Shown: positions 7,411-64,000, numbered from the stretch's first letter. The stretch: DNA of 64,000 nt from an uncultured Candidatus Saccharibacteria bacterium (GCA_964495685.1 CAZBVQ010000001.1:169521-233520), one strand, 5' to 3'. The notes: a model not told the origin generated them from the sequence alone. Translations and numbers: made by a program.

Positions 7411-7484
7411 CCGCCCCTAGCTCAGCTGGTTAGAGCATCGAGCTTATACCTCGAGGGTCCTTGGTTCGAGTCCAAGGGGGCGGA
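7411..7484 (+). tRNA. tRNA with anticodon UAU (tRNA-Ile2-like, reads AUA)
   Basis: Cloverleaf with acceptor CCGCCCC/GGGGCGG, D-arm GCTC-AGCTGGTTA-GAGC, anticodon arm TCGAG-CTTATAC-CTCGA, T-arm CTTGG-TTCGAGT-CCAAG and discriminator A. Confidence 0.7.
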
Positions 7485-7495
7485 CAAAATATAGG

Positions 7496-9961
7496 TTATT
7501 CAAAATGCGCCTCTTTTCCGTACTGCTCAGCCGCTTTCTTGAGTAGGGGATATTTGTTGAGCATCGCATCTTCACTTATTAATCTGATCGCCTCTGTTCG
7601 TGCCGCTTCGACCATCTTCAAATTTTTGAGTGCCTCCATGGCGACGTCGGAGACGCCCCATTGTCGTAGACCAGAAAGTTCGCCGGCACCACGTTGTGCG
7701 AGATCGAGCTCGGCCAGCTCGAAGCCATTCTTGGCAGTTTGGAGCGCCTTGAGACGCTCCAGGGATTTGGCGGAATTGGTTTCGGTGAATGCGTAACAAT
7801 ACGCTTGGTGACTACTGCGCATGACACGGCCGCGGAGCTGGTGGAGTTGTGAGAGGCCAAATCGTTCTGCACCTTCGATAATAATGACAGTGGCATTGGG
7901 TACATTGACGCCGACTTCGACGACTGAGGTGGCGCAGAGAATATCTATTTTTCCATTCTTGAAATCATCCATGACAGCATCTTTGTCTTCAGGTTTCATT
8001 TTGCTGTGGAGAATACCGATTTCGTAGTGCGGAAATACTGAACGTTTGAGGCGTTTTGCTTCTTCTTTGACTGACTTGGCGATGACGGCTGCCTCTTTGT
8101 CGGGATCTGGCTCATCGATACGTGGACAGATGACATAAAGTTGTCGACCAGCTTCGAGTTCGTGGCGGATTTTGGTATAAGTTTCGTCACGCTTATCAGG
8201 TCTAACAAGTTCGGTAATTATTGGCTTACGACCAGCAGGGGATTGATCGATGAGAGTAAGGTCGAGGTCGCCGTACATTGTTAATGCTAATGTGCGCGGA
8301 ATGGGTGTGGCGGTCATTGAAAGGAGATGTGGAGCGATAGTATCTTTGCGCACCAATTTCCTGCGCTGTGCGATACCGAAACGATGTTGCTCATCGATGA
8401 TGGCGTAAGCAAGATTTTTAAACTTGACTGACTTTTGAATAAGGGCATGTGTGCCTATAAGAACTGAAATGGAGCCTTCTTCAACCCACTTGAGAAGTTG
8501 CGAACGAGAAATATCGGTCCAACCCTTGGGGTTTACCTTGGAAGGAAATTTATAACAGCCGGAACCGGTGATGAGGCCAATCTGTATGGGCATGTAGGAG
8601 AAATATTTCACGAATGACTCGAATTGTTGGGTGGCGAGGATTTCGGTGGGGCACATGTAGGCGACTTGGAGTGGGCCACGGCGAAGAGCGTTTGTTACAA
8701 CCGCGACCTCAGAAGGAATACGGCTCTTGCCGACGCGCGTCAGGGCCTGCTGGCCCTGCGCTATGCTCGCGCCGTCGCGCTCCGCAGTGTCGGCTCGAAC
8801 CGATTCCTTCTGAGGTCGTGACGTCATGACGGCGTATGCGGTGGCTGCGGCAACGGCGGTCTTGCCGGAGCCGACATCTCCTTCGAGGAGGCGTGACATG
8901 GCAGAGCCGCGCTTCATGTCGGTCATAATGGCGTCGATGGCATGCTGTTGGGCATCGGTGGCGACGAAGGGGAAGCGGCGCACGAATTCACGGACATGCT
9001 CGATGTCGGTCTCAATGGTGAAAGCGGGATGCTTCTCATATTCGCGGCGAGCTTGCTGACGCGCGAGCTGGATCATAAATATTTCTTGGAATGAAAAACG
9101 TTTGCGCGCGGCGAGGGCGTCGTCATTATTCATGGGTGTATGAATCCAGATGAGAGCGGTTTTGAGGGTTGGTAGATGATATTTTTCGAGAATGTCGGCA
9201 GGAATGGGGTCGGCGAGCTGGTCGAGGATGCCACTCTTGAATACTTTTTGCAGAGAATGATACATCCAGAGAGAGGTGATGCCGCGGGATTCGCTGTAGA
9301 CGGGATAGAGATTGTGAGATGCACCCGTGTCGCCGAAGAGGGAGTCGCCGACGCCGGTAGGGAGTTTATCGACGAGTTCGAGTTTGGGGTTGGAGAAGTA
9401 GAGTTTTCCGGTAGCATTAGGGACAAGAGTCTCCTCACCCACGATCGACTCGGCTCGCACAACAGAACCGCTCGCCGAGTCGTCTTTTCTCAGCGTCGCC
9501 TGTAGCGGTATGTCTGTTCCTTGATTCCGCGACGCTTCCGAAGAGGGTTCGGAAACTCTGTCCCCAATGCCACCGCTCGCCGATTTCTTCGGTCTTCGTT
9601 CGCTGACTTTGCCTTCGATGCGTACGAGGGCCCCTTCGGGGGTCATCTTGGCGATGTAGGGCTGGTTGAACCAGGTACACTGGATGCGACCAGTCTCGTC
9701 TTCGACGTAGGCAGTGGCCATGGTTATTTTGGTGCGGAATCCTTTGCTGGCTTTGAGGCTGGTGATTTTGCCGTAGATGACGGCAGTGTCACCTTTCTTG
9801 AGTGAGTCGATGGAGCGTGCCTCAGCAGTGTCGCCGTAGCGGACAGGGAAATGATAGAGCAAATCTTCGACGGTATGAACGCTGAGCTTCTTGAGCGCGG
9901 CCTTCTGGATGGGGGTGATGCGGAAGTATTCAGAGACGGGTATGTCGGGAGTGAGGGGCAT
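7496..9961 (-). CDS. recG: ATP-dependent DNA helicase RecG (ORF extends to 10012; likely start MPLTPDIP at ~9961)
   Basis: N-terminus L..L.GVG....KL..LGI.TV.DLL.H.P.RY-like, Walker A GDVGSGKTAVAA, DEQHRFG, MTATPIPRTLALT. An in-frame insert of about 39 aa is encoded by a palindromic element at 8704..8818. Confidence 0.9.
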   Translation of the reverse strand: MPLTPDIPVSEYFRITPIQKAALKKLSVHTVEDLLYHFPVRYGDTAEARSIDSLKKGDTAVIYGKITSLKASKGFRTKITMATAYVEDETGRIQCTWFNQPYIAKMTPEGALVRIEGKVSERRPKKSASGGIGDRVSEPSSEASRNQGTDIPLQATLRKDDSASGSVVRAESIVGEETLVPNATGKLYFSNPKLELVDKLPTGVGDSLFGDTGASHNLYPVYSESRGITSLWMYHSLQKVFKSGILDQLADPIPADILEKYHLPTLKTALIWIHTPMNNDDALAARKRFSFQEIFMIQLARQQARREYEKHPAFTIETDIEHVREFVRRFPFVATDAQQHAIDAIMTDMKRGSAMSRLLEGDVGSGKTAVAAATAYAVMTSRPQKESVRADTAERDGASIAQGQQALTRVGKSRIPSEVAVVTNALRRGPLQVAYMCPTEILATQQFESFVKYFSYMPIQIGLITGSGCYKFPSKVNPKGWTDISRSQLLKWVEEGSISVLIGTHALIQKSVKFKNLAYAIIDEQHRFGIAQRRKLVRKDTIAPHLLSMTATPIPRTLALTMYGDLDLTLIDQSPAGRKPIITELVRPDKRDETYTKIRHELEAGRQLYVICPRIDEPDPDKEAAVIAKSVKEEAKRLKRSVFPHYEIGILHSKMKPEDKDAVMDDFKNGKIDILCATSVVEVGVNVPNATVIIIEGAERFGLSQLHQLRGRVMRSSHQAYCYAFTETNSAKSLERLKALQTAKNGFELAELDLAQRGAGELSGLRQWGVSDVAMEALKNLKMVEAARTEAIRLISEDAMLNKYPLLKKAAEQYGKEAHFE
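8704..8818. repeat. Intragenic GC-rich palindromic element (family A) with 16 nt terminal inverted repeats CGACCTCAGAAGGAAT, in frame within recG
   Basis: The perfect TIRs bracket a core CGAGCATAGCGCAGGGCCAGCAGGCCCTGACGCGCGTCGG that is shared with the element in comF. Local GC is much higher than the flanking sequence, and spurious ORFs appear on both strands (8614..8829, 8624..8821). Confidence 0.75.
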
Positions 9962-10075
9962 GGGGATAGTATATAGGGAAAAAGGGAGGGATGGAAAGAT
10001 TATGTAATACACAATTTCTCCACAAATTCAAAAGGCGCTTGCATTGATGCCCCGTGATATGATACAGGTATTCTC

Positions 10076-10603
10076 ATGACGATTCAGAATATTATTACAA
10101 CCATTGGTATTCCTGTTATTGTGGCCGCCCTTATCTATATAGGATGTAAGCTTCAGACGCTGGATAATGTCGAAAAGAAGATCGAGAGTATTTACGATCG
10201 TTTCCTTAAGGTCGAGGAACGAGTTGATACGCTCTGGAAAGATAAAGTGGCGCCAGCGCATTCACCTCGTCAATTGAACGAATTGGGTGTGACAATACGA
10301 GATCAAAGTGGCATTAAGGAAATTATTGACACAAAAAGGCAGACTCTTCTTGATGCTATTCGAGAACAGGATCCAAAAACTCCATATGATGCTGAGAGGG
10401 TTATATTATCGGTGGTTAATGATCTGTCCAAACATTGTCCTGAAGTGGTCGACCAACTCAAAGAGGGAGCCTTCAAAGTCGGGCAGAGTATCGATGTCAT
10501 TCTTCTTGTTGGCGGATTTTATCTAAGGGACCAGATTTTCCCCGAACTTGGTTTTTCTCTTACTGATCTTGATATTCCCAAGCCAGCTCAACCTAGTCAG
10601 TAA
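10076..10603 (+). CDS. Hypothetical membrane-anchored protein
   Basis: 175 aa with an N-terminal TM helix and no known motifs. Confidence 0.5.
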   Translation: MTIQNIITTIGIPVIVAALIYIGCKLQTLDNVEKKIESIYDRFLKVEERVDTLWKDKVAPAHSPRQLNELGVTIRDQSGIKEIIDTKRQTLLDAIREQDPKTPYDAERVILSVVNDLSKHCPEVVDQLKEGAFKVGQSIDVILLVGGFYLRDQIFPELGFSLTDLDIPKPAQPSQ

Positions 10604-11471
10604 TACGCAGTCTCTTCTTTTTCAATTCCAAGAAACCTTCTTGGAGTAATGCTTCAATGGCATCTTTGATGCGTAATGACGGTATCTTCGATTTTTGGAA
10701 ATGCGCAGAAATTTCCTCCTCCGTCCTACCTTTCTCCATAATCAGTTTTAATATCCTCGATCTCAATTCACGATTTGATCCCTTGAATGGCTTCTGCTTC
10801 ATATGATGCGCACTTCTGCGTGACGGGTTGGGAAGAGTCTTCTTGAGATATGAACCATAATCCATGAGGGCCCAGTACCATTCACGGGGATTTTTGTTGA
10901 TCCGAGGATCTTGTAGGGCCTTCTCGATGAATGGCATGAGCTGGTCGTCAGTTACTTTCTTGCAAGCTTTCTTACCCTCACGTTTCTCGATTTCAGGGAA
11001 GAAGAAATGAATGAACACCGAACGAATATTGGTCTCGATGAAGGCGATTGGCTTGTTGAATGCAAACGCAAGAATAGAGCCGGCAGTGTTGGGTCCGATA
11101 CCGGGGAGTGCACGCAGTTCGTCGTATGTTTTCGGGAGTAATGAATTGGTGGTAGTTTCTTTTCCAGGAATTTTCTTGGTCCCATTCAGGGAAATCGTCT
11201 CCGCAATACGTTTGAGATACAGTGCGCGTCTGTTGTAGCCGAGGCCCGACCATTCCTGCAAGACTTCTTTGGTCGAAGCTTTGGTAAGTGATTCCCAGTC
11301 GGGGAAGCGGGCGATGAACGAGGTGAACTTTGCAGTCACGCGATGTACCTGTGTCTGCTGAAGCATGATTTCGGAGACGACGATGTAGTAGGGCCGTGTA
11401 TCTCTACGCCACAGCATGTTGCGCTTGTGAGTGCGGTAGTAGGATCGGATGGTGGAGATGAATTTTTTCAT
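10593..11471 (-). CDS. HhH-GPD superfamily DNA glycosylase (MutY/Nth-like, no obvious Fe-S cysteine cluster)
   Basis: N-terminal YYIVVSEIMLQQTQVHRV and helix-hairpin-helix LPGIGPNTAGSILAFAF are typical of the EndoIII/MutY family. Confidence 0.75.
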   Translation of the reverse strand: MKKFISTIRSYYRTHKRNMLWRRDTRPYYIVVSEIMLQQTQVHRVTAKFTSFIARFPDWESLTKASTKEVLQEWSGLGYNRRALYLKRIAETISLNGTKKIPGKETTTNSLLPKTYDELRALPGIGPNTAGSILAFAFNKPIAFIETNIRSVFIHFFFPEIEKREGKKACKKVTDDQLMPFIEKALQDPRINKNPREWYWALMDYGSYLKKTLPNPSRRSAHHMKQKPFKGSNRELRSRILKLIMEKGRTEEEISAHFQKSKIPSLRIKDAIEALLQEGFLELKKKRLRITD

Positions 11472-12506: not shown

Positions 12507-12568
12507 GATGATGAATGATTAAACTACTAAGGAATAATGGGGAGATTGTAGCATATAAAAAGTATCTG

Positions 12569-12655
12569 CGGAGACGGTGGGATTCGAACCCACGAGGGAG
12601 TTTCCCCCCTAACACCTTAGCACGGTGCCGCTTTCGACCACTCAGCCACGTCTCC
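12569..12655 (-). tRNA. tRNA-Ser (GCU)
   Basis: Class II tRNA on the minus strand: GGAGACG acceptor, anticodon loop GTGCTAA (anticodon GCU), long variable arm, T-arm GTGGG-TTCGAAT-CCCAC. Confidence 0.85.
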
Positions 12656-12763: not shown

Positions 12764-12848
12764 GGAGAGATGGGTGAGTGGTTTAAACCAGCGGTTTACT
12801 AAACCGCCGACCTGCAAAGGTCCGCGAGTTCGAATCTCGCTCTCTCCG
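12764..12848 (+). tRNA. Class II (Ser-type, G73) tRNA with apparent anticodon ACU (unusual)
   Basis: GGAGAGA acceptor, D-arm, anticodon arm GCGGT-TTACTAA-ACCGC, 18 nt variable arm, T-arm GAG-TTCGAAT-CTC, discriminator G. The anticodon positions 34-36 read ACT. Confidence 0.6.
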
Positions 12849-12989
12849 CAGACGTTAGTTAGTCAATCGCTTAGAGAAAGGTGTCAAGTGGCACGAAACA
12901 AATTATATTTTGCATGGTATGATGACTACAAGTTCTGAGTAAGAAATGCTCTAAATTTAAAAACCTATTTTATCTAACATAAAACTAAT

Positions 12990-13934
12990 ATGAGGTTCAC
13001 AAAGATTATTGTGGCAGTTATCGTGGTCGTGGCTGTAGTTGGTTTTGTTGCTTGGGATACTAATTTGATACCGAAAGACTCTTTCCGTACATCAAATAAT
13101 GAAAATACCCCGATTACCACAGATGATACAAAGTCACCATCTTCCAATCAGAGTATTGAGTCTCGGCAAATGAGTTTCGAACAAGCTAAAAAGGTATCGA
13201 TAACAGCACCTTCAGGGAATGATATTCTTGAACCAGGCAAGCCGGCCGTGGTTGTTTTCTCACCAGTCCAGGGGGCCGTATCTTATGAGATAACAATTAC
13301 CATTCCTGCATATACAGATCGCTCACGTAATCTTGTAAGTGCAGACAAGGTCGATACGTTGTTTAAGGAAGTTACATCAGAAACAACTCACACAATAATT
13401 GTACCCAAGACAATTGCTTATCAAACATCGGAAAATGGCTATAACGGAGAAAAGATTATTGTCAGAGCCCTTGATCGTGATGGCAAACAATTGATGATAA
13501 ACGGAATCCAACAGGGAAAAGCATACGAGATCCCTGCAGTGGATGAAAAACAGATAAAGATCCTTTCTTTACCTACTCAGCAGAATCTTTTGGACGCAGA
13601 TACGTATGTTCTCGGAAAAGAAGGTGGAACGATTACGCTCAAATTTGGAGCATTACAACTCCCATCTGTCAAAAGGAAAGTTGTCTTCGTGTGCCCATCA
13701 GAAGTAAATTCAATAATTTCAATAGACGGAATTAGCTGTGGTGGCCCTCAAGCGACCCCCCTCGAGTTCGGTGCGGAGGCATTCACTAAGAAAATGATCG
13801 TGAAAGGAAATCCTTTTCCAGGGCGAGATACAGCAATCGCATTAATGGTCTCCTATTATGATAGTAAAGGGAATCGGATCAGTTCTCGGGGTATAGATGA
13901 TCAGTCTTGGTTGTCAGTAAAGATTTCTAAATAA
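12990..13934 (+). CDS. Hypothetical secreted/membrane-anchored protein
   Basis: 314 aa with an N-terminal TM/signal anchor and no known motifs. Confidence 0.5.
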   Translation: MRFTKIIVAVIVVVAVVGFVAWDTNLIPKDSFRTSNNENTPITTDDTKSPSSNQSIESRQMSFEQAKKVSITAPSGNDILEPGKPAVVVFSPVQGAVSYEITITIPAYTDRSRNLVSADKVDTLFKEVTSETTHTIIVPKTIAYQTSENGYNGEKIIVRALDRDGKQLMINGIQQGKAYEIPAVDEKQIKILSLPTQQNLLDADTYVLGKEGGTITLKFGALQLPSVKRKVVFVCPSEVNSIISIDGISCGGPQATPLEFGAEAFTKKMIVKGNPFPGRDTAIALMVSYYDSKGNRISSRGIDDQSWLSVKISK

Positions 13935-14005
13935 AGATTTTTATTTTCCCCAAAATAACGCTGCTATAGACGTTATAATTATTCGCTATCAACTAATCTA
14001 CACCC

Positions 14006-18550: not shown

Positions 18551-19195
18551 ATGGAAACCAAATTCCAAACCTCATTTATCCCCAAGAGGCCACTCATACC
18601 TACAAGCGGGCTCAATCCGGCCGCGCCCAAGCGGAGCTTCAGCTATTTCATGGCGATTGCAGTGCTACTCTTCATCATTTCTATCGGTGCTGCCGGTGGT
18701 AGTTATTTCTGGAAGTCATATCTTGAGACAGCCCAGATAGGGTACAAAACCCAGTTGGCCCAACGTGAAAAACAGTTCAACCCCAATCTCATCGAAGATT
18801 TGAAGCGTCAGAACGTCAAAATAGACACAGGCAAACAGCTTCTTGCAAACCATATTGCCGTCTCGCACATTTTCGATATCATCGGTCGCCTGACCATCGA
18901 AGACGTCCGCTTCATGAGCATGGAGATGACCACTGGCGCTACCAAGAATGAAGGCATCAAGATTGCCCTCAAGGGATATGGCACCACATTGAGTGCTGTC
19001 GCGTTCCAGTCAGACGTCCTCGGTCAGCTCGAACGATACGGTCTGCGCAAGGTCGTCAAAAATCCCATTTTGAGTGATCCGGCCTTGGATACCAATGGAT
19101 TGGTAGCTTTTGGGATGACTGCCACCGTCGATCCAGTCAGTCTCTCGTATGAGAAGAACCTTGCAGCGTCGACGGCGACCACCACTTCACCATAG
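18551..19195 (+). CDS. PilN-like pilus assembly protein (single TM)
   Basis: Position after pilM, with an N-terminal TM helix and a periplasmic coiled region. Confidence 0.6.
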   Translation: METKFQTSFIPKRPLIPTSGLNPAAPKRSFSYFMAIAVLLFIISIGAAGGSYFWKSYLETAQIGYKTQLAQREKQFNPNLIEDLKRQNVKIDTGKQLLANHIAVSHIFDIIGRLTIEDVRFMSMEMTTGATKNEGIKIALKGYGTTLSAVAFQSDVLGQLERYGLRKVVKNPILSDPALDTNGLVAFGMTATVDPVSLSYEKNLAASTATTTSP

Positions 19196-52386: not shown

Positions 52387-54333
52387 ATGAAACGGAAGGC
52401 TGGGAAGGCCATTGCATCGGTACGGACTGCGACGAAAGGGAAACGCGCATCGTCGAGGCTTTCCGCCCCCGCATCTCGCCCCAAAGTGGGCAAACTCAGT
52501 CACAAATACATATTCGTTATCGGTGGTGTCATGTCTGGCGTCGGTAAGGGCGTAGCTACATCATCTATCGGTACACTCTTGGGCGCCAAGGGATTCAAGG
52601 TCAATCTGGTCAAGGTGGATCCGTACTTGAATGTGGATGCTGGCACCATGAATCCGATCGAGCACGGCGAAGTGTTCGTACTCAATTCAGGCCTAGAAAC
52701 AGATCAAGATATGGGCAACTATGAGCGCTTCCTCAATCGTGATCTGACAGGTGACGACTATATTACGAGTGGCATGGTCTATAAGCACGTGATCGAGAAG
52801 GAGCGTGCGCTCGGCTATGGCGGCAAGTGTGTTGAAGCTGTCCCACATATTCGTGATGAGATCGTCAGACGTTTCGAACATTCCGCCAAAGTAAACAAGT
52901 CAGATGTCTCCATCATCGAGATCGGTGGTACAGTCGGTGACTATCAAAACATCATGTTCATCGAGGCGGCACGCGCCCTCAAGATTCGTCACCCGCACGA
53001 TGTGGCTTTCATCATGGTTTCGTATTTGCCGACACCGGGGACGCTCGGTGAGATGAAGACGCGACCGACACAAAATGCGGTGCACCAGCTGGCTTCATAT
53101 GGTGTCACTACTGATATTGTGATTGCTCGTGCCTCGACACCGCTCGATGAGCGCCGCAAAGAGAAGATAGCAACGGCTTGCAATATTTTGTCGCGCCGTG
53201 TCATTTCGGCGCCTGATATCAAGAGTATCTATGATGTACCGGTCAATTTCGAGGCCGATAAGCTGGCAGATATCATCCTCGAAGTGTTGCATGTCGATCG
53301 GGAGACTACGTCTGCGCTCAGTAAGACACCCATCATTTCTCTTGCTGATTGGAAGAAGATGGCGCGCGGCATCAAGAATCGTGATGGGGCAGAGCTCAAT
53401 ATAGCCATCGTGGGCAAGTATTTCAATACAGGAGATTTCGTCCTGACTGATGCGTATCTATCGGTCTTGGAGGCGGTGAAGTTTTCGGCATACGCAGTCG
53501 GAGTGAAGGCCAATATTTATACGATCAATGCGAGGGATTTCGAGAATGAAAAATCATCCACCTTCGCCAAGGCTACGGCGGACAAGAAAGGCAAAGGGCA
53601 AAAGTCCAAACAGGAGACATTCCCGTATGGCAAATTGGATGACATGGACGGCATCATTGTGCCGGGTGGTTTCGGCGAATCTGGTATCGAAGGCAAGCTC
53701 AATGTCATCCGCTACGCTCGTGAGAATGGTATTCCATACTTCGGTCTCTGCTACGGTATGCAGCTCATGACCATCGAGTATGCCCGCAACGTTCTCGGTC
53801 TCAAGGGTGCACATACTGCCGAGATTGATCCGAAGTCGCCACATCTCATCATCGACATCATGCCTGACCAGAAAAAGAAGATTGCTGAGGGCAATTATGG
53901 TGGTTCGATGCGTCTCGGTCTCTATCCGGCCAAATTACTCAAGGGGTCACTTGCGCAGCGTGCGTATTCATATTTCGGCAACACCAAGCTCGATCGCCCG
54001 ACGACCACCATCAAAGAGCGTCACCGCCATCGCTACGAGGTCAATCCTGCCTATATCGAGCGACTGGAGAAGGCGGGTTTGATATTCTCGGGCAAGTCTC
54101 CCAACGGCACTCTGATGGAGATCGCTGAATTGCCCAATGCGATGCACCCCTTCTTCCTCGGTACACAGTTCCATCCGGAGCTTCTGGCACGACCACTTAT
54201 GCCACATCCTTTGTTCACGGAGTTCATGCGCGCTGCGCGGGATCGCAACAAGCAGATGGATCGTGTGGCGCTGATGCAGATCCAGGAGCCTGTTGAGGGT
54301 GATATGATTCGTAACGTTGAGGATGATTTCTAG
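52387..54333 (+). CDS. pyrG: CTP synthase PyrG (annotated ATG gives about 40 aa N-terminal extension; GTG ~52484 possible start)
   Basis: N-terminal KYIFVIGGVMSGVGKG synthase domain and C-terminal glutamine amidotransferase with GLCYGMQ catalytic Cys and the His/Glu region. Confidence 0.95.
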   Translation: MKRKAGKAIASVRTATKGKRASSRLSAPASRPKVGKLSHKYIFVIGGVMSGVGKGVATSSIGTLLGAKGFKVNLVKVDPYLNVDAGTMNPIEHGEVFVLNSGLETDQDMGNYERFLNRDLTGDDYITSGMVYKHVIEKERALGYGGKCVEAVPHIRDEIVRRFEHSAKVNKSDVSIIEIGGTVGDYQNIMFIEAARALKIRHPHDVAFIMVSYLPTPGTLGEMKTRPTQNAVHQLASYGVTTDIVIARASTPLDERRKEKIATACNILSRRVISAPDIKSIYDVPVNFEADKLADIILEVLHVDRETTSALSKTPIISLADWKKMARGIKNRDGAELNIAIVGKYFNTGDFVLTDAYLSVLEAVKFSAYAVGVKANIYTINARDFENEKSSTFAKATADKKGKGQKSKQETFPYGKLDDMDGIIVPGGFGESGIEGKLNVIRYARENGIPYFGLCYGMQLMTIEYARNVLGLKGAHTAEIDPKSPHLIIDIMPDQKKKIAEGNYGGSMRLGLYPAKLLKGSLAQRAYSYFGNTKLDRPTTTIKERHRHRYEVNPAYIERLEKAGLIFSGKSPNGTLMEIAELPNAMHPFFLGTQFHPELLARPLMPHPLFTEFMRAARDRNKQMDRVALMQIQEPVEGDMIRNVEDDF

Positions 54334-54359
54334 GCCGGGTCTGAACAAATGTATTTTAT

Positions 54360-54974
54360 ATGACTCTCAAAGATATTATTAAATTCAGCACACTACTTAC
54401 AAAGCTTCAGAATACAAAGAGGGTCATTTATGTATGCAATGAAAATCGCCTAGAAAATGACGTTGAACATAGCTATATGCTCGCTATGCTGGCATGGTAT
54501 TTCGTTGAAAGCGACCATTTGGATTTGGATGTTGCCAAGATTATACAGTACGCAATGGTACACGATTTGGTAGAAGTATATGCAGGCGATGTGTATCTCT
54601 ATGAAACCAATCAGACAATACGGAATAACAAACACAAAAAGGAACGTCAGGCCGCAGCACGTATCAGAAGAGAATTCCCGAAGTTTCAACAACTTCATAC
54701 TCTTATTCAGGCGTATGAGGGAAAAGTGGATGCTGAAAGTAAGTTCGTGTACGCCTTAGATAAAGTTCAGCCAGTTATTCAGATTTATCTTGATCGAGGA
54801 CGCACGTGGAACAAAAAGAAAATAACATTGAAAATGCTTATTGATGCAAAAAAAGACAAGGTCGCACTGTCAAAACCAGTTCGGCACGCATTTGATGAAC
54901 TCGTTTCTTTTTTGAAACATAGGGAGAAAAAGTTATTCAAATTTAAATATCATGACCCAAGAACACGAAGTTAA
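54360..54974 (+). CDS. HD-domain phosphohydrolase (YfbR-like 5'-deoxynucleotidase family)
   Basis: HD motif residues in VEHSYMLA...MVHDLVEVYAGD. The gene is AT-rich. Confidence 0.75.
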   Translation: MTLKDIIKFSTLLTKLQNTKRVIYVCNENRLENDVEHSYMLAMLAWYFVESDHLDLDVAKIIQYAMVHDLVEVYAGDVYLYETNQTIRNNKHKKERQAAARIRREFPKFQQLHTLIQAYEGKVDAESKFVYALDKVQPVIQIYLDRGRTWNKKKITLKMLIDAKKDKVALSKPVRHAFDELVSFLKHREKKLFKFKYHDPRTRS

Positions 54975-55539
54975 AGTCCTAAATATCGACGTTGCTGACA
55001 TTACACGCAAGCTCAAAAAGATTGGCGCCAAGAAGAAGGGTGACTTCTTTTATCGTTCGTGTTCCTTCGACTATGAAGGATTTCCGCTGGATAAGAAGAT
55101 GTCATGGATACGTCTGCGCGATGAGGGCGACAAGGTCCGTCTCGCGTACAAGCGTCGACTGGGTGTGAAATCCAGTAAGGGTGATGATGCTGGCATGGAG
55201 GAGATTGAGTTTGATGTTGGTCACTATGACAAAGCACGGCATTTCCTACACAAGATCGGCCTTATTCTCAAATTTGGCCAGGAGAAGAAACGTACTCGCT
55301 GGGTCAAAGGGAATATTGAGTTTGATATAGATACGTGTCCACGACTGGCGCCTTATCTGGAAATAGAAGGGAAGACCGAGGCTGCGATGAAGCGGGGCAT
55401 CAAGCTACTGGGCATAGATCCCCAAAATTGTAGGCGTTTTTCGACGACACAGCTTTATGAGATGCAAGGTATTCGCGACAAGGACTACATTTCCATGACT
55501 TTCGATGAGTTTGTGAAGAGAGATGGTAAGCGGAAATAA
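54952..55539 (+). CDS. CYTH-domain protein (CyaB-like triphosphate tunnel metalloenzyme / class IV adenylyl cyclase family)
   Basis: N-terminal EHEVKV (ExExK motif), WIRLRDEGDKVRLAYKRR, and C-terminal acidic IEFDID...LEIEG. It overlaps the HD gene by 23 nt. Confidence 0.75.
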   Translation: MTQEHEVKVLNIDVADITRKLKKIGAKKKGDFFYRSCSFDYEGFPLDKKMSWIRLRDEGDKVRLAYKRRLGVKSSKGDDAGMEEIEFDVGHYDKARHFLHKIGLILKFGQEKKRTRWVKGNIEFDIDTCPRLAPYLEIEGKTEAAMKRGIKLLGIDPQNCRRFSTTQLYEMQGIRDKDYISMTFDEFVKRDGKRK

Positions 55540-58128: not shown

Positions 58129-58199
58129 TGCGGGATCGTCTAATGGTAGGACACAGCTCTCTGAAAGCTGGTATCTTGGTTCGAGTCCAAGTCCCGCAG
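58129..58199 (+). tRNA. tRNA-Gln (CUG)
   Basis: U1-A72 acceptor (TGCGGGA/TCCCGCA), D-arm of Glx type, anticodon loop CTCTGAA, discriminator G. Confidence 0.8.
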
Positions 58200-58219
58200 C
58201 AATAATTAAAACCTATACA

Positions 58220-58912
58220 ATGCAACTATTTTTATCAGGTGGAGGAGATAGCGACAAATCATTTGAATACGATAAAAAATTTATCGAAGCAATTGATACA
58301 ACAAAACCAGTTTTATATATCCCCATCGCAATGCCGCAAGAGACCCATTCTTATGGAGACTGTCTGAAATGGGTTAAGAATAATTTCAAACCTTTTTCGT
58401 TCGATAATTTTGTCATGTGGACAGAGGAAGATTTGAAGATCAAGAAAATTGAAGATTTTAAACAATTTGGTGGGATTTATATTGGCGGCGGGAATACTTT
58501 TAAACTTCTAAAAGAACTAAAGGAATTTGGAACCGTAGAAATACTTATTGAATTGGCAAAACAAAATATTCCAATTTTTGGCGGAAGCGCCGGTGCAATC
58601 ATTTGGGGTAAAACAATATGCACGGCAATTGGTTATGACGACAATGAAGTCCGACTATCCGATTTCTCTGCTTTTAATAAGGTATTTGGTTATGAAATAT
58701 GGTGCCATTATTTAATTGAATCAGAAAAGAGCAAGGTCATCGAATACATGTCCAAATACAAACTTAAAAAAGTAATTGTGATGCCTGATGATGCAGGGAT
58801 AATTGTTAGGGAATCTTCAATTGAATTCGTTGGACCCGCAGCCTCGTGGATTTTTGATGAAGAGGGAGTAAGAGAAATAAAAGCTGGAAGTGTAATTAAT
58901 GTTGTTGCATAA
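58220..58912 (+). CDS. Peptidase S51 family (dipeptidase E / cyanophycinase-like)
   Basis: LFLSGGG...IYIGGGNTF...GGSAGAII motifs. AT-rich, lying immediately downstream of tRNA-Gln. Confidence 0.75.
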   Translation: MQLFLSGGGDSDKSFEYDKKFIEAIDTTKPVLYIPIAMPQETHSYGDCLKWVKNNFKPFSFDNFVMWTEEDLKIKKIEDFKQFGGIYIGGGNTFKLLKELKEFGTVEILIELAKQNIPIFGGSAGAIIWGKTICTAIGYDDNEVRLSDFSAFNKVFGYEIWCHYLIESEKSKVIEYMSKYKLKKVIVMPDDAGIIVRESSIEFVGPAASWIFDEEGVREIKAGSVINVVA

Positions 58913-59048
58913 AATGCAGACCGAGACACATCGTTTCAATATATAAAATTATGCTAGTGTACTTTTACAAGGTCTTACCCCATTTGGTTCTAGACCGAAG
59001 AACACAGCACGAGTCAACGTAGTATCGAGGCTTAGACCGGAGAGCCTC

Positions 59049-59082
59049 AAACAAAAATATCCCTTGAGGGATATTTTTGTTT
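59049..59082. terminator. Perfect 34 nt palindrome AAACAAAAATATCCCT-T-GAGGGATATTTTTGTTT (bidirectional terminator)
   Basis: Lies between the convergent S51 peptidase and recombinase genes. Confidence 0.65.
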
Positions 59083-59088
59083 CCCTCG

Positions 59089-60387
59089 TTAAGACTTAGA
59101 AAGACTTATTACTTTTTTTGTTAGGATCAGCTTACTTTTCAAGTTTGATAGAAGTTCACGTTTTTCTTCCGCTGTGCCCTCCGTGAGTACATGCTCCGCG
59201 TACTGTTTAGGATTATATTCGACTGCAATCTTTGGTTGTTTGATTCCATAGAATTGCTTTTGAAATCTCATCATTCGATCCTGTTCCTGATCAAACTTTC
59301 TTTTTATAAGTTTCTCGTCAATCTCGACTTTCTCAATTAAGGTGACTAGCTGTTTTATCAGCTCTTCCTCACGAACATATCCGCATTTGCAGCTAAGATC
59401 TTTTGATCTATTGCACCCATAGTATATGTAGTGAGCCTCGCCACCATTGGCAAGTTTCTTCCATTTCTCATCTGCCACCACTCCTGACCCGCACAATCCG
59501 CACGTCATGATTCTCGAGAAAGCGAACTCTTTCCGTTCATGGACGATATCTGACCGTTTTAGATGTTCTTGGACTTTCTCATATAGTTCACGAGTGATGA
59601 GTGGCTCATGTCGGCCTGTATACCAATTGCCACTCTTAGCTGGGTACTCGAATTGTCCGTAGAAAAACGGCGTTTGAAGCAATCGATAGATATTGCTCAG
59701 CGTCAGTGGTTTATTGCTTGTCGCGCTTCTAAAGTTTAGGTCGAACTTCAGCCAGTTGTATATTTTTCTGCCTGACCATTTTTCGTGCGCTACTTTCTCA
59801 AACATTCTCCTCATGACCGGTCCTCGTTCCGGATCGATGATCACGTATCCTTTTCGGTCAAGACGCTTCTCGTTTAGATATCCCGTAGGTGCAGGGGCTG
59901 GCCATAGACCCATCTCACAGCGAGTTCTAAGACCTCGCTTCACGTTTACGCTTTTGTTGTCATTTTCAAGCTTCGCCTGACTACATAGGATCATGAGAAG
60001 AAACTTATCGCTTGGCGAGTTTGTGAATTTTTGTCCGTACGTTTTTATCTCAATTAGTAGTTTCTGATCCATTAGGTCCACAAGGCTACCTAGATCGCCC
60101 GCATTTCTTGAAAGGCGGTCAGGATGCCATACCAGAATGCCGTTATATCTACCTGTCTGAATATCGGACAAAATCTCCTTGAATACAGGGCGCTGACCTG
60201 ATTCCTTGGCTGAGTGCGCTTCACGACGGATATCGATAATATCCATTCCATCACGCTCAGCGATCTGTAACATCTCTTTTACCTGTGAATCGATTGAAAG
60301 GGCTTGTTTTTCCTCCGCCTCGGTCGACTTGCGGGCATAGAGAACGTACTTCATTTTCACCGGTTCGATTTTTTGTTTGTTTTCCAT
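59089..60387 (-). CDS. Large serine recombinase (serine integrase)
   Basis: N-terminal resolvase catalytic domain (YARKST...SIDSQ), a recombinase domain, and a zinc-ribbon CGLCGS...C.C. Confidence 0.88.
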   Translation of the reverse strand: MENKQKIEPVKMKYVLYARKSTEAEEKQALSIDSQVKEMLQIAERDGMDIIDIRREAHSAKESGQRPVFKEILSDIQTGRYNGILVWHPDRLSRNAGDLGSLVDLMDQKLLIEIKTYGQKFTNSPSDKFLLMILCSQAKLENDNKSVNVKRGLRTRCEMGLWPAPAPTGYLNEKRLDRKGYVIIDPERGPVMRRMFEKVAHEKWSGRKIYNWLKFDLNFRSATSNKPLTLSNIYRLLQTPFFYGQFEYPAKSGNWYTGRHEPLITRELYEKVQEHLKRSDIVHERKEFAFSRIMTCGLCGSGVVADEKWKKLANGGEAHYIYYGCNRSKDLSCKCGYVREEELIKQLVTLIEKVEIDEKLIKRKFDQEQDRMMRFQKQFYGIKQPKIAVEYNPKQYAEHVLTEGTAEEKRELLSNLKSKLILTKKVISLSKS

Positions 60388-60492
60388 ATACCATCAAGGG
60401 ATGACGAATATTGCCGTGAAAGTCTAGACCTGTTTATGCTCTTTCAAATTGTCTAAATTTGTGGGATTATTCAGATATCTTTTGTAAAGATT

Positions 60493-61134
60493 ATGAATGA
60501 TATTTGGATATACATAAAAGATGTTCTACACAGTCTTAGTAAACTAGTAGAAAATCATCCGGCGCTATCGTCAGGATTTTTTACTATCCTTGGAGCAGTA
60601 TTGAGCATAATATTCGATTTGAAAAAGAAAGTAGAAACACAAACCACAAAAATAAAATCTCGGATTAAAACAAGAAATTTTACTTTTATATTCGGTAGCA
60701 ATAACAACGTATCCCAAGCATCTTCGCATGGAGAAATTGCGAGACAACAACCTGCGGTTGTTTCAGCCACGGATTACAACGGTCCCTTGTCGAATACTCA
60801 GCGTGAAATTTGTAGGAGAGTGAAGTCATTGTCAATTAAATATTCCTCGCAGATAGATATTGAAGCGTCTTTTGATGATTCAATAAGAACTCTAAATTCA
60901 AATGAGGTTAATTTGGCGGCGGGTAAGTTTGTTCAACTATTTAACATTGTTTCATCGGGTCTGACCGTTATAGCGCAAAGTAATAATGCTATTGATGAAT
61001 TAAATCAGCTTGTTACTTTGACGAACGGACTTCATGGTTTGATTGGAACTTCAACAGACCAAGATTCATTCAAGAGACAGATTTCAAGTTGCGAATCGAT
61101 GTTATGGAAACTGTTAGTCAAACTGCCCATATGA
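60493..61134 (+). CDS. Hypothetical single-TM protein (island cargo)
   Basis: 213 aa with one TM helix (FFTILGAVLSIIF). Its stop overlaps the next gene's start (ATGA). Confidence 0.5.
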   Translation: MNDIWIYIKDVLHSLSKLVENHPALSSGFFTILGAVLSIIFDLKKKVETQTTKIKSRIKTRNFTFIFGSNNNVSQASSHGEIARQQPAVVSATDYNGPLSNTQREICRRVKSLSIKYSSQIDIEASFDDSIRTLNSNEVNLAAGKFVQLFNIVSSGLTVIAQSNNAIDELNQLVTLTNGLHGLIGTSTDQDSFKRQISSCESMLWKLLVKLPI

Positions 61135-64000
61135 ACCAACTTCAAATTCACAAAAAAATAGATGATTTTTTCCAAAGTGGTGTTACCAACGCCTCTATTT
61201 TGACTGCGCGTGAATTGATCAACCATAACGCTGATGCAAAGAGGTATTTCTTTTCAAAAGCGAATGAGACTTGGTTGAAATGGTTTATAGATAATGATCT
61301 TTTCACTGAACTTAAAAAGAAAGCCGATGACCCTACAACATATGGTTACCGCATAACCGAATTGGAGTATCTGACTCGCATGGCTGAAAAGGAGCCGAAG
61401 ATAGTTGCCGATATTATACTTTCAGTTCCTATCTCAAAAGAGACATTTAATCCTGAAGTAATCGATCGATTCTTTTGGGTTACTAGTTTGCTTCCTCTTG
61501 AGCAGATAAAAACCATATTACCGAAGATGCTTTCGGACGGATGGCTGCCGCTCATGTCTCACTTCGGCCGTTCGGGGTATGAGTATCAAAAAATGGTTGA
61601 GAAAGTATCTCAAGCAAAGGATTATGATGCCGCGCTTAGTCTTGCCCGAGTCATCCTAACTGTAAGACCGAAAACTGACTTCGAAAAGTCTGAGCGTTTC
61701 TCAATATCCGATAACTTCTTTTACCTTAGAGATATAAGTGAAACGGGTATATTTGAATTATTGGTTGCCGACGATAATTCAAAGAAAGAAGAATCTCTGA
61801 AGTTGCTGTTAGAGACTATTACCACGATTGTGGGTCTCGGCAAGGACCCTGAAGAAGCTGTTTTCGCGAAAGCGGAACCTTTTTATCTCCTTGACGTTGA
61901 TATCTTCACGTTGGAATTGGATACAGATAAACGCTCTCACATGAGGGAGGATATTCAGAACCTTGTTGCGACATACAAGATATTAATTCGACAAACTCTT
62001 GGTTCTCTCTGTGATAATGCTATCCAAGCAAAGAGGATTTACACATCATATGTAGCCACATTGCCAGATAGCCGTACCTGCTACAGGCTTAAATTATACG
62101 CCGCCACACGCTGTGTCGATGTATTTAAATTAGAAATTACGGAAGCCTTGTTCCGTGTGTTCAGTGTCGGTGAAAGGTATTTTGAGATTGAAGGTGGGGC
62201 CGAGTATCATCAGGCGCTCATTGCTTCGTTTGGATCCCTAGATCCAAAGACAACTCAACGTGAATACATAAAAAGTGTTATTGGATACTTTGGTGCCCAT
62301 CTCAATGATGCTGATAAGGAAAAATGGAGAAAGAGAGACGGTCGCGAGATCCTGTCGTATATAAAAGAATATATCCTACCCGAGGAGAAGGGCGCTGTCG
62401 AAAATATTTTTGGTACCCTGCTCGCTAGCGATAAAGTCAAACCTCGTCCGTCGGTTGGCGAGGTTGTGAGTGGAACGGTCAATCACAAGCCCCCTTTTAA
62501 TCCGGGCGATTTCAGTATTGCTGAATTGATTTCTCTCCTTAAGACCGACGCCACACCCAAAAAACTTGAGGAAAAGTATAGAGGCGATGATTTTCTAAAT
62601 CCTCGAGGTGCGGAAGGTCTGGCGGATGCTATAAAAACTGATTTCAAGAAACGCAGATCTGAATATTTTGCAAAACTCGATCAATTCTTTGATCGAGACG
62701 GTATTGATGCTAGCTATGTCTACTCTGTTCTCCAGCAAATCGATAACATGTTCAGGGAGAAGGAGGTGTTTACTGATGGTGAATGTATCCAGCTTATTAA
62801 CTTCTTTGATCTCATAAAGAAATCGGGAGAAAAAAAGGAATTCGAGCCAGCTGATGAAAAATCATATATCGCGGATTGGATTACCGTGCATAAAATGGTT
62901 GCGGACATTTTATTGGACATTCTTGCTGTGGTAAAAGATTCTAAAGTATTTAAGGAGAATCGAGACAAGATTTTAGGTATTATTAAATATCTACTCACAA
63001 TTAAATCTAGTCCTAACACAGATGATGATAAGCGTGAATCCAATGAACCTGCCTTAGTAGCTGTTAATTCGGTAAGAGGTCAAGCATATAGAGCATTTGT
63101 CCAGTTTACGTATAACGATGGTAATAATCAGTTATCTAAAGACGTGAAGGAGATATTTGTACAAGTACTTAATAACGACAAATCAAATGCAGTCAGGTTC
63201 ACGTTGGGTCAATTTCTATCTTCCTTTTACTATCGAGATATTATCTTCATAAAGGGACTGTTATCTAAAATCTTTCCGACTGATTTGGTAGGTGAAAAAC
63301 AGTACTTTGCGACATGGGAAGGATACCTCTCGGTATCTCTCTATAAAGAATTGTTTGTAGAACTTAAAGACTATTATCTCTATGCAGTTAAAATAGATCC
63401 AGAAAAATATCCTGAAAGAAAGTATCTGAAAGGACTTGATGAATCCTTGGCGACTCATTTGGCTCTTGCTTACATGCATTTTGATGACTTTAAAATTGAT
63501 GATCCACTTTTTGATTTATTCTGGAAGACACGTAATGAGACTAGGCACTTCGAGTTTATCTCTTTTATCGGAAGACACTGCATTAATCAAAGTCGGACAG
63601 AAGATTCTTGGTTTGAGGAAAATGGTGTTAGTAAAGAAAAGATAATTAATTTCTGGAATTGGATCATAACTACAGATATTTCAATAGAACCAAAAGCTTT
63701 TGCCGGATTTGGTTTTTGGATAAATCCTGATGTTGAAATTATTGAGGATAAAACGGTTATTAAGAATCTTCCTGCAACACTTAAAAAATCTGAGGGCGAT
63801 TTCGATTGGGATTATGGACTTACGAAGAGAATAACAAGATTTGCCGAATTGGATCCTAAATCAACGCTTGAAGTTATTAGGGCATTTCTACTGTTGAACG
63901 ATGAGCTTAGCCCACATAGGAGATCTCCAATGTTTAGTTTAGATAGAGAAATCAAGGATGCTCTTGAGATTATCTACAAGAATGCCTCGTTGAAGAATGG
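61131..64000 (+). CDS. Very large hypothetical alpha-helical protein (at least 956 aa, continues beyond window end)
   Basis: Uninterrupted + frame from ATG 61131 to the window end, AT-rich, no recognisable catalytic motifs. Not in the ORF track because it lacks a stop within the window. Confidence 0.6.
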   Translation, partial: MNQLQIHKKIDDFFQSGVTNASILTARELINHNADAKRYFFSKANETWLKWFIDNDLFTELKKKADDPTTYGYRITELEYLTRMAEKEPKIVADIILSVPISKETFNPEVIDRFFWVTSLLPLEQIKTILPKMLSDGWLPLMSHFGRSGYEYQKMVEKVSQAKDYDAALSLARVILTVRPKTDFEKSERFSISDNFFYLRDISETGIFELLVADDNSKKEESLKLLLETITTIVGLGKDPEEAVFAKAEPFYLLDVDIFTLELDTDKRSHMREDIQNLVATYKILIRQTLGSLCDNAIQAKRIYTSYVATLPDSRTCYRLKLYAATRCVDVFKLEITEALFRVFSVGERYFEIEGGAEYHQALIASFGSLDPKTTQREYIKSVIGYFGAHLNDADKEKWRKRDGREILSYIKEYILPEEKGAVENIFGTLLASDKVKPRPSVGEVVSGTVNHKPPFNPGDFSIAELISLLKTDATPKKLEEKYRGDDFLNPRGAEGLADAIKTDFKKRRSEYFAKLDQFFDRDGIDASYVYSVLQQIDNMFREKEVFTDGECIQLINFFDLIKKSGEKKEFEPADEKSYIADWITVHKMVADILLDILAVVKDSKVFKENRDKILGIIKYLLTIKSSPNTDDDKRESNEPALVAVNSVRGQAYRAFVQFTYNDGNNQLSKDVKEIFVQVLNNDKSNAVRFTLGQFLSSFYYRDIIFIKGLLSKIFPTDLVGEKQYFATWEGYLSVSLYKELFVELKDYYLYAVKIDPEKYPERKYLKGLDESLATHLALAYMHFDDFKIDDPLFDLFWKTRNETRHFEFISFIGRHCINQSRTEDSWFEENGVSKEKIINFWNWIITTDISIEPKAFAGFGFWINPDVEIIEDKTVIKNLPATLKKSEGDFDWDYGLTKRITRFAELDPKSTLEVIRAFLLLNDELSPHRRSPMFSLDREIKDALEIIYKNASLKN

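Follow-up and report, generated by a model that had tools for sequence, protein, structure and literature searches.

A serine-integrase element beside tRNA-Gln in a Saccharibacteria genome carries a candidate anti-phage module related to the Dsr1/Avs7 sensor

What is the AT-rich DNA that begins directly behind a tRNA-Gln gene in an uncultured Candidatus Saccharibacteria bacterium, and what might its largest gene do? The stretch analyzed, called the window throughout, is 64,000 nucleotides (nt) long (GCA_964495685.1 CAZBVQ010000001.1:169521-233520), and the AT-rich DNA occupies its right end. This DNA encodes an S51 peptidase, a large serine recombinase, and two overlapping open reading frames (ORFs). 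The first of the two encodes 213 amino acids (aa) with one transmembrane (TM)-like helix (60493-61134, plus strand), and the second, named BIG here, runs to the end of the window (61131-64000, plus strand). The window holds the first 956 of the 982 codons of BIG, which ends at window-equivalent 64079 and whose start overlaps the stop of its partner through ATGA. An earlier sequence-only reading had listed the peptidase, a 432-aa recombinase, a 213-aa single-TM protein, and a translationally coupled large helical protein, and all of them are present. The explanation favored here, which we consider reasonably probable, is that a foreign zone of ~14.5 kb harbors a nested 11.3-kb integrase element, and that this element would carry a two-gene anti-phage module with a Dsr1/Avs7-type sensor.

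BIG had been described as a protein with no recognizable motifs. Direct scans of the 213-aa and 956-aa proteins against Pfam, NCBIfam, and PADLOC gave no match, and a search of PDB sequences with a BIG profile gave none either. BIG is 100% identical to P0001 over its full length of 982 aa. A word-indexed search gives 178 homologues at E ≤ 0.001, an exhaustive search gives 2,432 clusters (50% identity), and every source that names one calls it a "hypothetical protein" (accessions include OGJ54781.1, KND51843.1, and TSC83897.1). The PADLOC Dsr1 model matches 12 of 42 members of this family in its non-SIR2 part, with a best E of 3.7e-27. In the fused homologue of locus L033, the match (E 2e-18) spans model positions 746-1200 of 1227, outside the SIR2 part. 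A tblastn search with the Dsr1-matching region retrieved haloarchaeal plasmid proteins annotated as "AAA/ATP-binding" and one Legionella protein. The Halapricum protein possesses an AAA_16 nucleoside triphosphatase (NTPase) domain at residues 30-154 and a Dsr1-model match at residues 502-1356. In hhalign, the BIG family profile aligns with this protein over 694 columns (99.0%, E 4.6e-18; BIG 80-849 versus residues 480-1221), a region that does not include the AAA_16 domain. Judged by this homology, BIG is, at the family level, a stand-alone member of the Dsr1/Avs7 sensor superfamily. Because the homology extends over ~700 columns, the claim that BIG lacks recognizable motifs does not hold, and the system represents a known family in a variant form. 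The defence proteins with a Dsr1/Avs7 sensor are known; what is new here is better described as the N-terminal domain and its split or fused variant.

The structure of BIG was modeled with AlphaFold2 from 42 homologues. The model is a wholly helical, all-alpha solenoid with a predicted local distance difference test (pLDDT) score of 88.6. Foldseek comparison of the model with the PDB returned generic solenoids only, such as karyopherins and CAND1, with Avs4 giving the best TM-score (TMq 0.34). Among 185,579 GTDB species, BIG is found in 62 loci with a patchy distribution. Patescibacteria from many classes account for nearly all hosts, and the few others are Aminicenantes, Fibrobacterota, and Brocadiales. 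A Dsr1-type sensor also occurs on a Legionella pneumophila plasmid (L100; NZ_CP016871.1, 11428-13797), where a 789-aa "hypothetical protein" consists of the sensor only (PADLOC Dsr1, E 8e-34). Because IS256 and IS3 copies flank this gene, it represents a truncated or stand-alone sensor in a different phylum.

Many BIG homologues are 1150-1200 aa long, which is due to a ~180-aa domain fused at the N-terminus. In the GTDB loci, a hidden Markov model (HMM) of this N-domain detects 18 copies that are fused to BIG and 27 that are split from it. All of them sit at the 5' end of BIG, and five of the split copies have an extra TM-like N-terminal helix. The N-domain is characterized by the motifs NPDW[MI][AS]Q[SA]A[HN]SxRE and [ST]x[IL][AT]HH, in which S73, R75, and H151 are invariant. 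Its AlphaFold2 model is a helical bundle (pLDDT 82.5), and the fused N-domains have no SIR2 match. Because it has invariant Ser, Arg, and His residues and weakly resembles a predicted nuclease, as described below, the N-domain is the probable effector of the BIG family.

The window's 213-aa protein occupies the position of this domain. Its TM-like segment covers residues 25-43 (Kyte-Doolittle 1.88). The N-domain HMM misses it in all six frames and scores the control partners from L094, L096, L098, L010, and L058 at E values of 1e-7 to 1e-18. Only the segment LSNTQREICRRV of the 213-aa protein gives a weak match to the first helix of the N-domain. On sequence comparison, this protein is an atypical orphan in place of the family's usual partner domain. 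It does not typify a conserved family of small membrane proteins, and on this point the earlier reading needs correcting.

The surroundings of the module have a foreign composition. The left landmark is the tRNA-Gln gene (anticodon CTG; 58129-58200, plus strand), which was found by ARAGORN and matches Rfam RF00005 with 60.3 bits. For the right side, the contig was extended to 33 kb in all by using a 521-kb ENA contig that shows 0 mismatches over its 5872-nt overlap with the window. The locus coordinate is the window coordinate minus 51130, and off-window positions are given as window-equivalents. The drop in GC content begins directly 3' of tRNA-Gln(CTG), and GC averages 0.396 across 58201-72730 compared to 0.489 in the backbone (5-kb segments, sd 0.015, minimum 0.442). 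Per kilobase, it is 0.35-0.43 from 58 kb to the window end and mostly 0.45-0.55 elsewhere in the window. The dinucleotide signature distance delta* is 90-123 for the island and 19-75 for the backbone. The abrupt AT-rich shift after the tRNA-Gln 3' end is therefore confirmed by base composition and by k-mer signature alike. On the extended contig, the block continues for ~8.7 kb beyond the window and has its right boundary near window-equivalent 72,700, for a total of ~14.5 kb.

Within the block, a 58-nt imperfect direct repeat (DR) is present in two copies. The left copy, DR-L, is located at 58952-59009 on the plus strand (locus 7822-7879; core 58965-59009), and the right copy, DR-R, lies off the window at window-equivalent 70226-70283 (locus 19096-19153). 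In local alignment, the copies are 83% identical over 58 nt and 41/45 (91%) in the core, and they are spaced 11,274 nt apart. Of the direct-repeat families reported for the 16-kb region, this one (D1) is the longest. By eye, the repeat resembles the 3' half of a tRNA, with a T-arm (TTTGG/TTCTAGA/CCGAA) and an acceptor strand that ends in ACAGCA. The repeats bound an 11.3-kb element that carries the serine integrase, the 213-aa/982-aa pair, and TerS-like and ParB-methylase genes. Because the S51 gene is to the left of DR-L and the integrase gene to its right, the S51 gene falls outside the integrase-bounded element. From left to right, the layout is tRNA-Gln, S51, DR-L, a conserved arm with a palindrome, the integrase, the 213-aa ORF, BIG, further genes, DR-R, and a DUF5677 segment. 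The AT-rich block is a composite of the S51 segment, the 11.3-kb element, and the DUF5677 segment. The notion of one integrase-bearing island thus stands for the intact integrase and the foreign composition and falls for the unity of the block.

The conserved arm on the element side (59004-59050, plus strand) contains the hairpin GAGGCT...AGCCTC. In alignment, it is 39/46 identical to L096 6205-6251, counted from the last 4 nt of the intact L096 tRNA-Gln, and the L046 match is similar. In L096 and L046, this sequence is directly 3' of an intact tRNA-Gln, and in the window it is directly 3' of DR-L. Since the arm matches sequence that starts at the intact tRNA-Gln end in L096, DR-L stands in place of the tRNA-Gln 3' end at the integrase-proximal junction. 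At the integrase 3' end follows a perfect 16-nt palindrome, AAACAAAAATATCCCT (59049-59064) and AGGGATATTTTTGTTT (59067-59082), which is listed as inverted repeat I15 and forms a bidirectional terminator-like hairpin. It had been called a strong bidirectional terminator; the palindrome is perfect, but a simple terminator scan did not flag it. As read from their sequences, L011, L017, and L046 have an equivalent AAACAAAAA-hairpin-TTTTTGTTT at the 3' end of the integrase gene, and L045 has one just 3' of tRNA-Gln.

Arm and palindrome belong to a non-coding stretch that is conserved in several genomes, 3' of tRNA-Gln or just before the integrase 3' end: window 59004-59082, L011 5060-5233, L045 2915-3120, L046 5156-5313, and L096 6205-6251. 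It is composed of a hairpin (GAGGCT...AGCCTC / GCATACC.GCTGAG.GC.GTAT) followed by the AAACAAAAA-hairpin-TTTTTGTTT palindrome. This stretch could be an integrase attachment (att) arm or a small RNA, and Rfam reports no known RNA in the conserved spacer between tRNA and integrase. A 25.5-kb contig from an independent sample (L006; Logan SRR6747782_218929) starts at window 58171, which is tRNA-Gln position 43, and an assembly graph that branches at the 3' half of the tRNA may account for this start. The far end of the contig is an unrelated GC-rich palindrome, so the contig ends do not mark the island borders.

The link between the element and tRNA-Gln is well supported by comparison with relatives, because the arrangement of tRNA-Gln, integrase, and BIG recurs in them, and so is the status of the block as an island. 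A tRNA-Gln (CTG or TTG) is found near a BIG homologue in 12 loci, eight of which also encode a related serine integrase, and integrase homologues occur in 14 of the 62 BIG loci overall. In L011, L046, and L048, integrase and tRNA-Gln are arranged tail-to-tail, and in the window they are 0.9 kb apart. The closest relatives of the window locus are L094 (85% identical) and L096 (70% identical). Their order is tRNA-Gln, variable cargo, integrase, partner plus BIG, TerS-like gene, and ParB-methylase. The slot of the window's S51 gene holds this variable cargo: an MmeI restriction-modification (RM) gene, a helicase, and T5orf172 in L094, and a Shedu SduA_C gene in L096. In L052, a 63-nt, 90% repeat of the locus's own tRNA-Gln 3' end and flank bounds a 9.4-kb island with BIG, and in L010, fragments of tRNA-Gln are found 16 kb downstream of the tRNA itself. 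The earlier reading of a novel defence context is supported in part: the cargo is defence-like and recurs beside tRNA-Gln in other genomes, though as a variant of the known Dsr1/Avs7 family.

Other tRNA genes are found near BIG or near serine recombinases as well. Seven loci (L028, L039, L042, L043, L056, L058, and L065) have a tRNA-Asn(GTT) no more than 10 kb from BIG, and this tRNA may be a second preferred insertion site. Further large serine recombinase genes adjoin tRNAs or tRNA-like 3' ends in L022 (1772-1846), L033 (22849-22920), L017 (1-270), and L031 (contig end), and the abutting tRNAs are tRNA-Glu in L022 and tRNA-Trp in L033. This abutment suggests that tRNA genes are common targets of serine integrases in Patescibacteria.

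To obtain neighbor counts, the ORFs of the 62 BIG loci were clustered and the clusters annotated. A ParB-methylase-like cluster lies near BIG in 19 of the 62 loci. A TerS-like gene often accompanies it (10 loci), and five loci have TerL (phrog_38, E 3e-78). In the window's element, the TerS-like gene matches phrog_24579 (E 1.5e-5), the ParB-methylase matches phrog_498 (E 5e-79), and TerL is absent. The trio of ParB-methylase, TerS-like, and TerL genes is seen at L010 14522-17313, L045 14130-17028, L057 14-2902, and L017 12879-15777, with no capsid, portal, or tail genes nearby. The window-equivalent 65120-66983 is the same cluster without TerL. In its makeup, the trio resembles a satellite or a remnant more than it does a complete prophage. 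The defence neighbors of the BIG family are type III RM, a pair of PLD-SNF2 helicase and Eco57I-type methylase, MmeI, and Shedu.

These neighbors raise the possibility that BIG is an accessory RM subunit, either a regulator or a specificity/targeting scaffold for a helicase-nuclease and a methylase, and that the window copy is the orphaned remnant of such an operon. In ~10 loci, BIG indeed closes a row of genes that share one orientation and that overlap or are separated by small gaps, immediately after a PLD-SNF2 helicase and an Eco57I/MmeI-type methylase. It immediately follows a type III Mod and Res pair in ~5 loci, and the frequent ParB-methylase neighbor points the same way. However, many loci have BIG and its partner with no RM genes adjacent, among them the window, L013, L096, and L098, and where RM genes are present, they belong to at least three unrelated types. 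The PLD-SNF2 and methylase pair also occurs without BIG on Parabacteroides and Allomeiothermus plasmids, where it is followed by other defence genes such as TIR. Because of these plasmid contexts, and with unrelated RM genes or none beside BIG, an obligate RM role is unlikely. Homology to a sensor that acts autonomously with its own N-terminal effector fits ordinary clustering in defence islands. The accessory-subunit explanation as a whole is improbable in our view.

Under the favored explanation of a nested integrase element with a sensor module, the AT-rich zone would be foreign DNA that accumulated downstream of tRNA-Gln(CTG) in a Patescibacteria genome, and the window would show its left part. 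The 11.3-kb integrative element, bounded by the 45-58-nt imperfect repeat, would be mobilized, now or formerly, by the large serine integrase. It appears to retain phage-derived remnants in the ParB-domain DNA methylase and the TerS-like gene, with no TerL and no structural genes. Its cargo would be a translationally coupled two-gene anti-phage module. By analogy to Dsr1 and Avs7, where the ligand is the major capsid protein, BIG would bind a conserved phage structural protein and signal to its N-terminal partner. In the window, this partner seems to have been replaced by, or to have diverged into, an orphan 213-aa TM protein with no catalytic-looking motif. If the window copy is active, then action at the membrane (abortive infection) is more likely; otherwise, the copy would be decaying. 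An anti-phage role of the window module is probable.

Several observations weigh against this explanation. DR-L is identical to the present tRNA-Gln 3' end at 17/25 positions, which is within the shuffle range and does not mark it as a copy of the tRNA end, and the acceptor strand of the repeat (GAACACA) cannot pair with the tRNA-Gln 5' TGCGGGA. No copy of the present tRNA-Gln 3' end, exact or near-exact and of at least 11 nt, is found within 26 kb downstream, and for this reason an attR in the form of such a copy is rejected. A direct repeat thus flanks 11.3 kb, but not in the predicted form of a duplicate of the present tRNA end. An empty site was not found among contigs with identical flanking rhodanese proteins or among JGI metagenome relatives. 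All five contigs read that contain the identical flanking rhodanese gene have the same arrangement (one shown, four listed as similar), and relatives at ≤85% identity lack synteny or lie on contigs that are too short. At the protein level, P0001 itself falls below the PADLOC Dsr1 threshold, and the Dsr1 homology is therefore shown at the family level only. Just two BIG homologues are present in 2.9 million IMG/VR viral contigs, so carriage of BIG by bona fide phages is rare. The matches of the N-domain to PF18165 ("predicted pPIWI-associating nuclease") are weak and sub-threshold (E ~0.01), in 8 of 22 fused domains and 2 of 10 split partners, and the N-domain model has no significant fold match in the PDB. 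Given these two results, we infer rather than identify an effector nuclease. A search of 5.8 billion clusters retrieved no homologue of the 213-aa partner beyond the protein itself. The partner also lacks the NPDW, SxRE, and HH motifs of the N-domain, and for both reasons the window copy may be non-functional.

The last point leads to the alternative that what the window holds is an inactive copy in decay, a remnant. The element would have become fixed, TerL would have been lost, the att repeats would have diverged, and the partner would have been replaced by a meaningless ORF. Consistent with decay, the repeat cores are 91% rather than 100% identical, TerL is absent here and present in relatives, and the orphan partner carries none of the conserved N-domain motifs. 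In contrast, BIG is full length, is 85% identical to P0002, and keeps the invariant family residues. The integrase ORF is intact, the 213-aa ORF retains the ATGA coupling and a TM helix like those of five bona fide partners, and identical proteins are found in several independent samples. We therefore hold decay of the window copy to be quite improbable.

A bolder version combines the sensor with the RM neighbors. BIG could be a scaffold that senses capsid or other phage proteins and works with interchangeable, separate partners, which would be nuclease-like elsewhere and a membrane orphan here, and in ~15 genomes it could gate an adjacent helicase-nuclease/methylase (RM-like) operon. We regard this as a long shot. 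If true, the recognition of protein patterns would be coupled to restriction in bacteria of the candidate phyla radiation, a group whose immunity has received little study.

The idea that the module serves the mobile element itself, through prophage or satellite superinfection exclusion, control of packaging or partition, or as a capsid-binding counter-defence decoy, draws on the integrase linkage in 14 loci, the ParB-methylase/TerS/TerL trio in ~10 loci, and the location of the BIG module between integrase and packaging genes, which is a usual place of accessory "moron" genes, but it is improbable, given that IMG/VR holds so few homologues, that no capsid, portal, or tail genes are seen in these loci, that many BIG copies have no integrase or terminase nearby, and that superinfection exclusion by a capsid sensor would still be defence in mechanistic terms. 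An intact prophage is rejected, since of phage genes the element has only the TerS-like and ParB-methylase genes and no TerL, and no PHROG structural matches (capsid, portal, tail) were found among its other ORFs or in the BIG loci scanned.

The remaining genes of the block are as follows. The S51 (PepE-like) peptidase gene (58220-58912, plus strand) matches PF03575 (E 1.2e-24) and has a GC of 0.35. A second S51-peptidase homologue occurs in L056 (13868-14506), 2.4 kb downstream of BIG. The large serine recombinase, or integrase (59089-60387, minus strand), is a 432-aa ORF for which gene callers give 421 aa. Its Pfam domains are Resolvase (PF00239), Recombinase (PF07508), and Zn_ribbon_recom (PF13408), it matches the phrog_95 integrase (E 2.6e-64), and its top NCBIfam match is CcrB, below the cut-off of that model. 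Off the window, on the extended contig, the genes 3' of BIG are, in order, a 224-aa ORF, the TerS-like 179-aa gene, and the ParB_N plus N6_N4 methylase. These are followed by a 191-aa ORF, RidA, dCMP deaminase, and two small minus-strand ORFs, and then by DUF5677, a 372-aa ORF (phrog_8571), and AAA_18. The 372-aa protein lies beyond DR-R, and a homologue of it adjoins the integrase in L037.

Elsewhere in the window, other 1-kb patches of low GC (0.41-0.43) are found at 10001-11000, 13001-14000, and 54001-55000, and such patches include HD_3/CYTH genes ~4 kb upstream of tRNA-Gln. A transfer-messenger RNA gene is located at 1942-2319 with the tag peptide AKSTVSPYFGAKDFAFALA. ARAGORN also reports a tRNA-Ile with anticodon TAT (7411-7485) and a tRNA-Ser with anticodon ACT (12764-12849). 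Both anticodons are unusual, and the tRNA-Ser(ACT) is divergent from the tRNA-Ser(GCT) at 12568-12655.

The assignment of BIG places a family of ~2,400 clusters at 50% identity, so far named only "hypothetical protein," in the Dsr1/Avs7 capsid-sensor superfamily. A sensor of this type is widespread in Patescibacteria, where it is paired with an N-terminal domain that had no name before and that is often encoded by a gene of its own. The loci indicate that large serine integrases repeatedly place defence cargo at tRNA-Gln, and possibly at tRNA-Asn, in these tiny genomes. If put to the test, the split architecture would offer a natural system for learning how an NTPase-free sensor switches on its effector.

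How does the locus compare to known systems? Like tRNA-targeted integrative elements and defence islands, a class that takes in P4-like and other tRNA-inserted islands and serine-integrase elements such as SCCmec with CcrAB, the window has an integrase beside a tRNA 3' end. Further shared features are flanking direct repeats with the look of a tRNA 3' half, a foreign composition, defence cargo that varies, and inserts that accumulate in tandem. Classical tRNA-inserted islands use tyrosine integrases. The window differs from them in its large serine recombinase and in repeats that do not match the present tRNA.

Avs7, an antiviral STAND (signal transduction ATPases with numerous domains) NTPase, and Dsr1, the defence-associated sirtuin 1 (PADLOC PDLC04166), share a bilobed tetratricopeptide repeat (TPR) sensor that recognizes the phage major capsid protein, as reported by Gao and colleagues (PMC12803255, PMC13581612, Nature 2026). 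Activation by the major capsid protein is known for SeAvs7 and EcDsr1 only (PMC13581612). Dsr1 resembles BIG in its large C-terminal alpha-solenoid/TPR sensor (EcDsr1, PMC13581612). In both, a small N-terminal module is followed by the sensor with no NTPase; the BIG family is encoded as a single polypeptide or a split pair and is carried on mobile DNA. Unlike in Dsr1, no SIR2 NADase domain is detected in the 213-aa protein or at the BIG N-terminus with Pfam, NCBIfam, or PADLOC. The N-terminal module of the BIG family is instead an unrelated ~180-aa helical domain that is a separate gene in 27 of 45 loci, and in the window the partner is a TM-bearing orphan. With Avs7, BIG shares a homologous sensor, as seen in the hhalign comparison with the haloarchaeal AAA_16-sensor protein. 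Unlike Avs7, BIG and its partner have no STAND NTPase, and neither shows a P-loop or AAA Pfam match.

The Avs7-type sensor is described with interchangeable N-terminal effectors and a patchy, horizontally transferred distribution (PMC13581612). It also occurs without the STAND NTPase, behind NADase, nuclease, kinase, TM, and unknown N-terminal modules (PMC12803255, PMC13581612). The non-STAND proteins with this sensor that are shown in Extended Data Fig. 2 of PMC13581612, with nuclease, kinase, TM, and unknown effectors, have the same effector-then-sensor order without an NTPase, and the BIG family probably belongs among them. The split-gene form, the N-domain with its NPDW/SxRE/HH motifs, and the host range in Patescibacteria go beyond what the main text of PMC13581612 describes.

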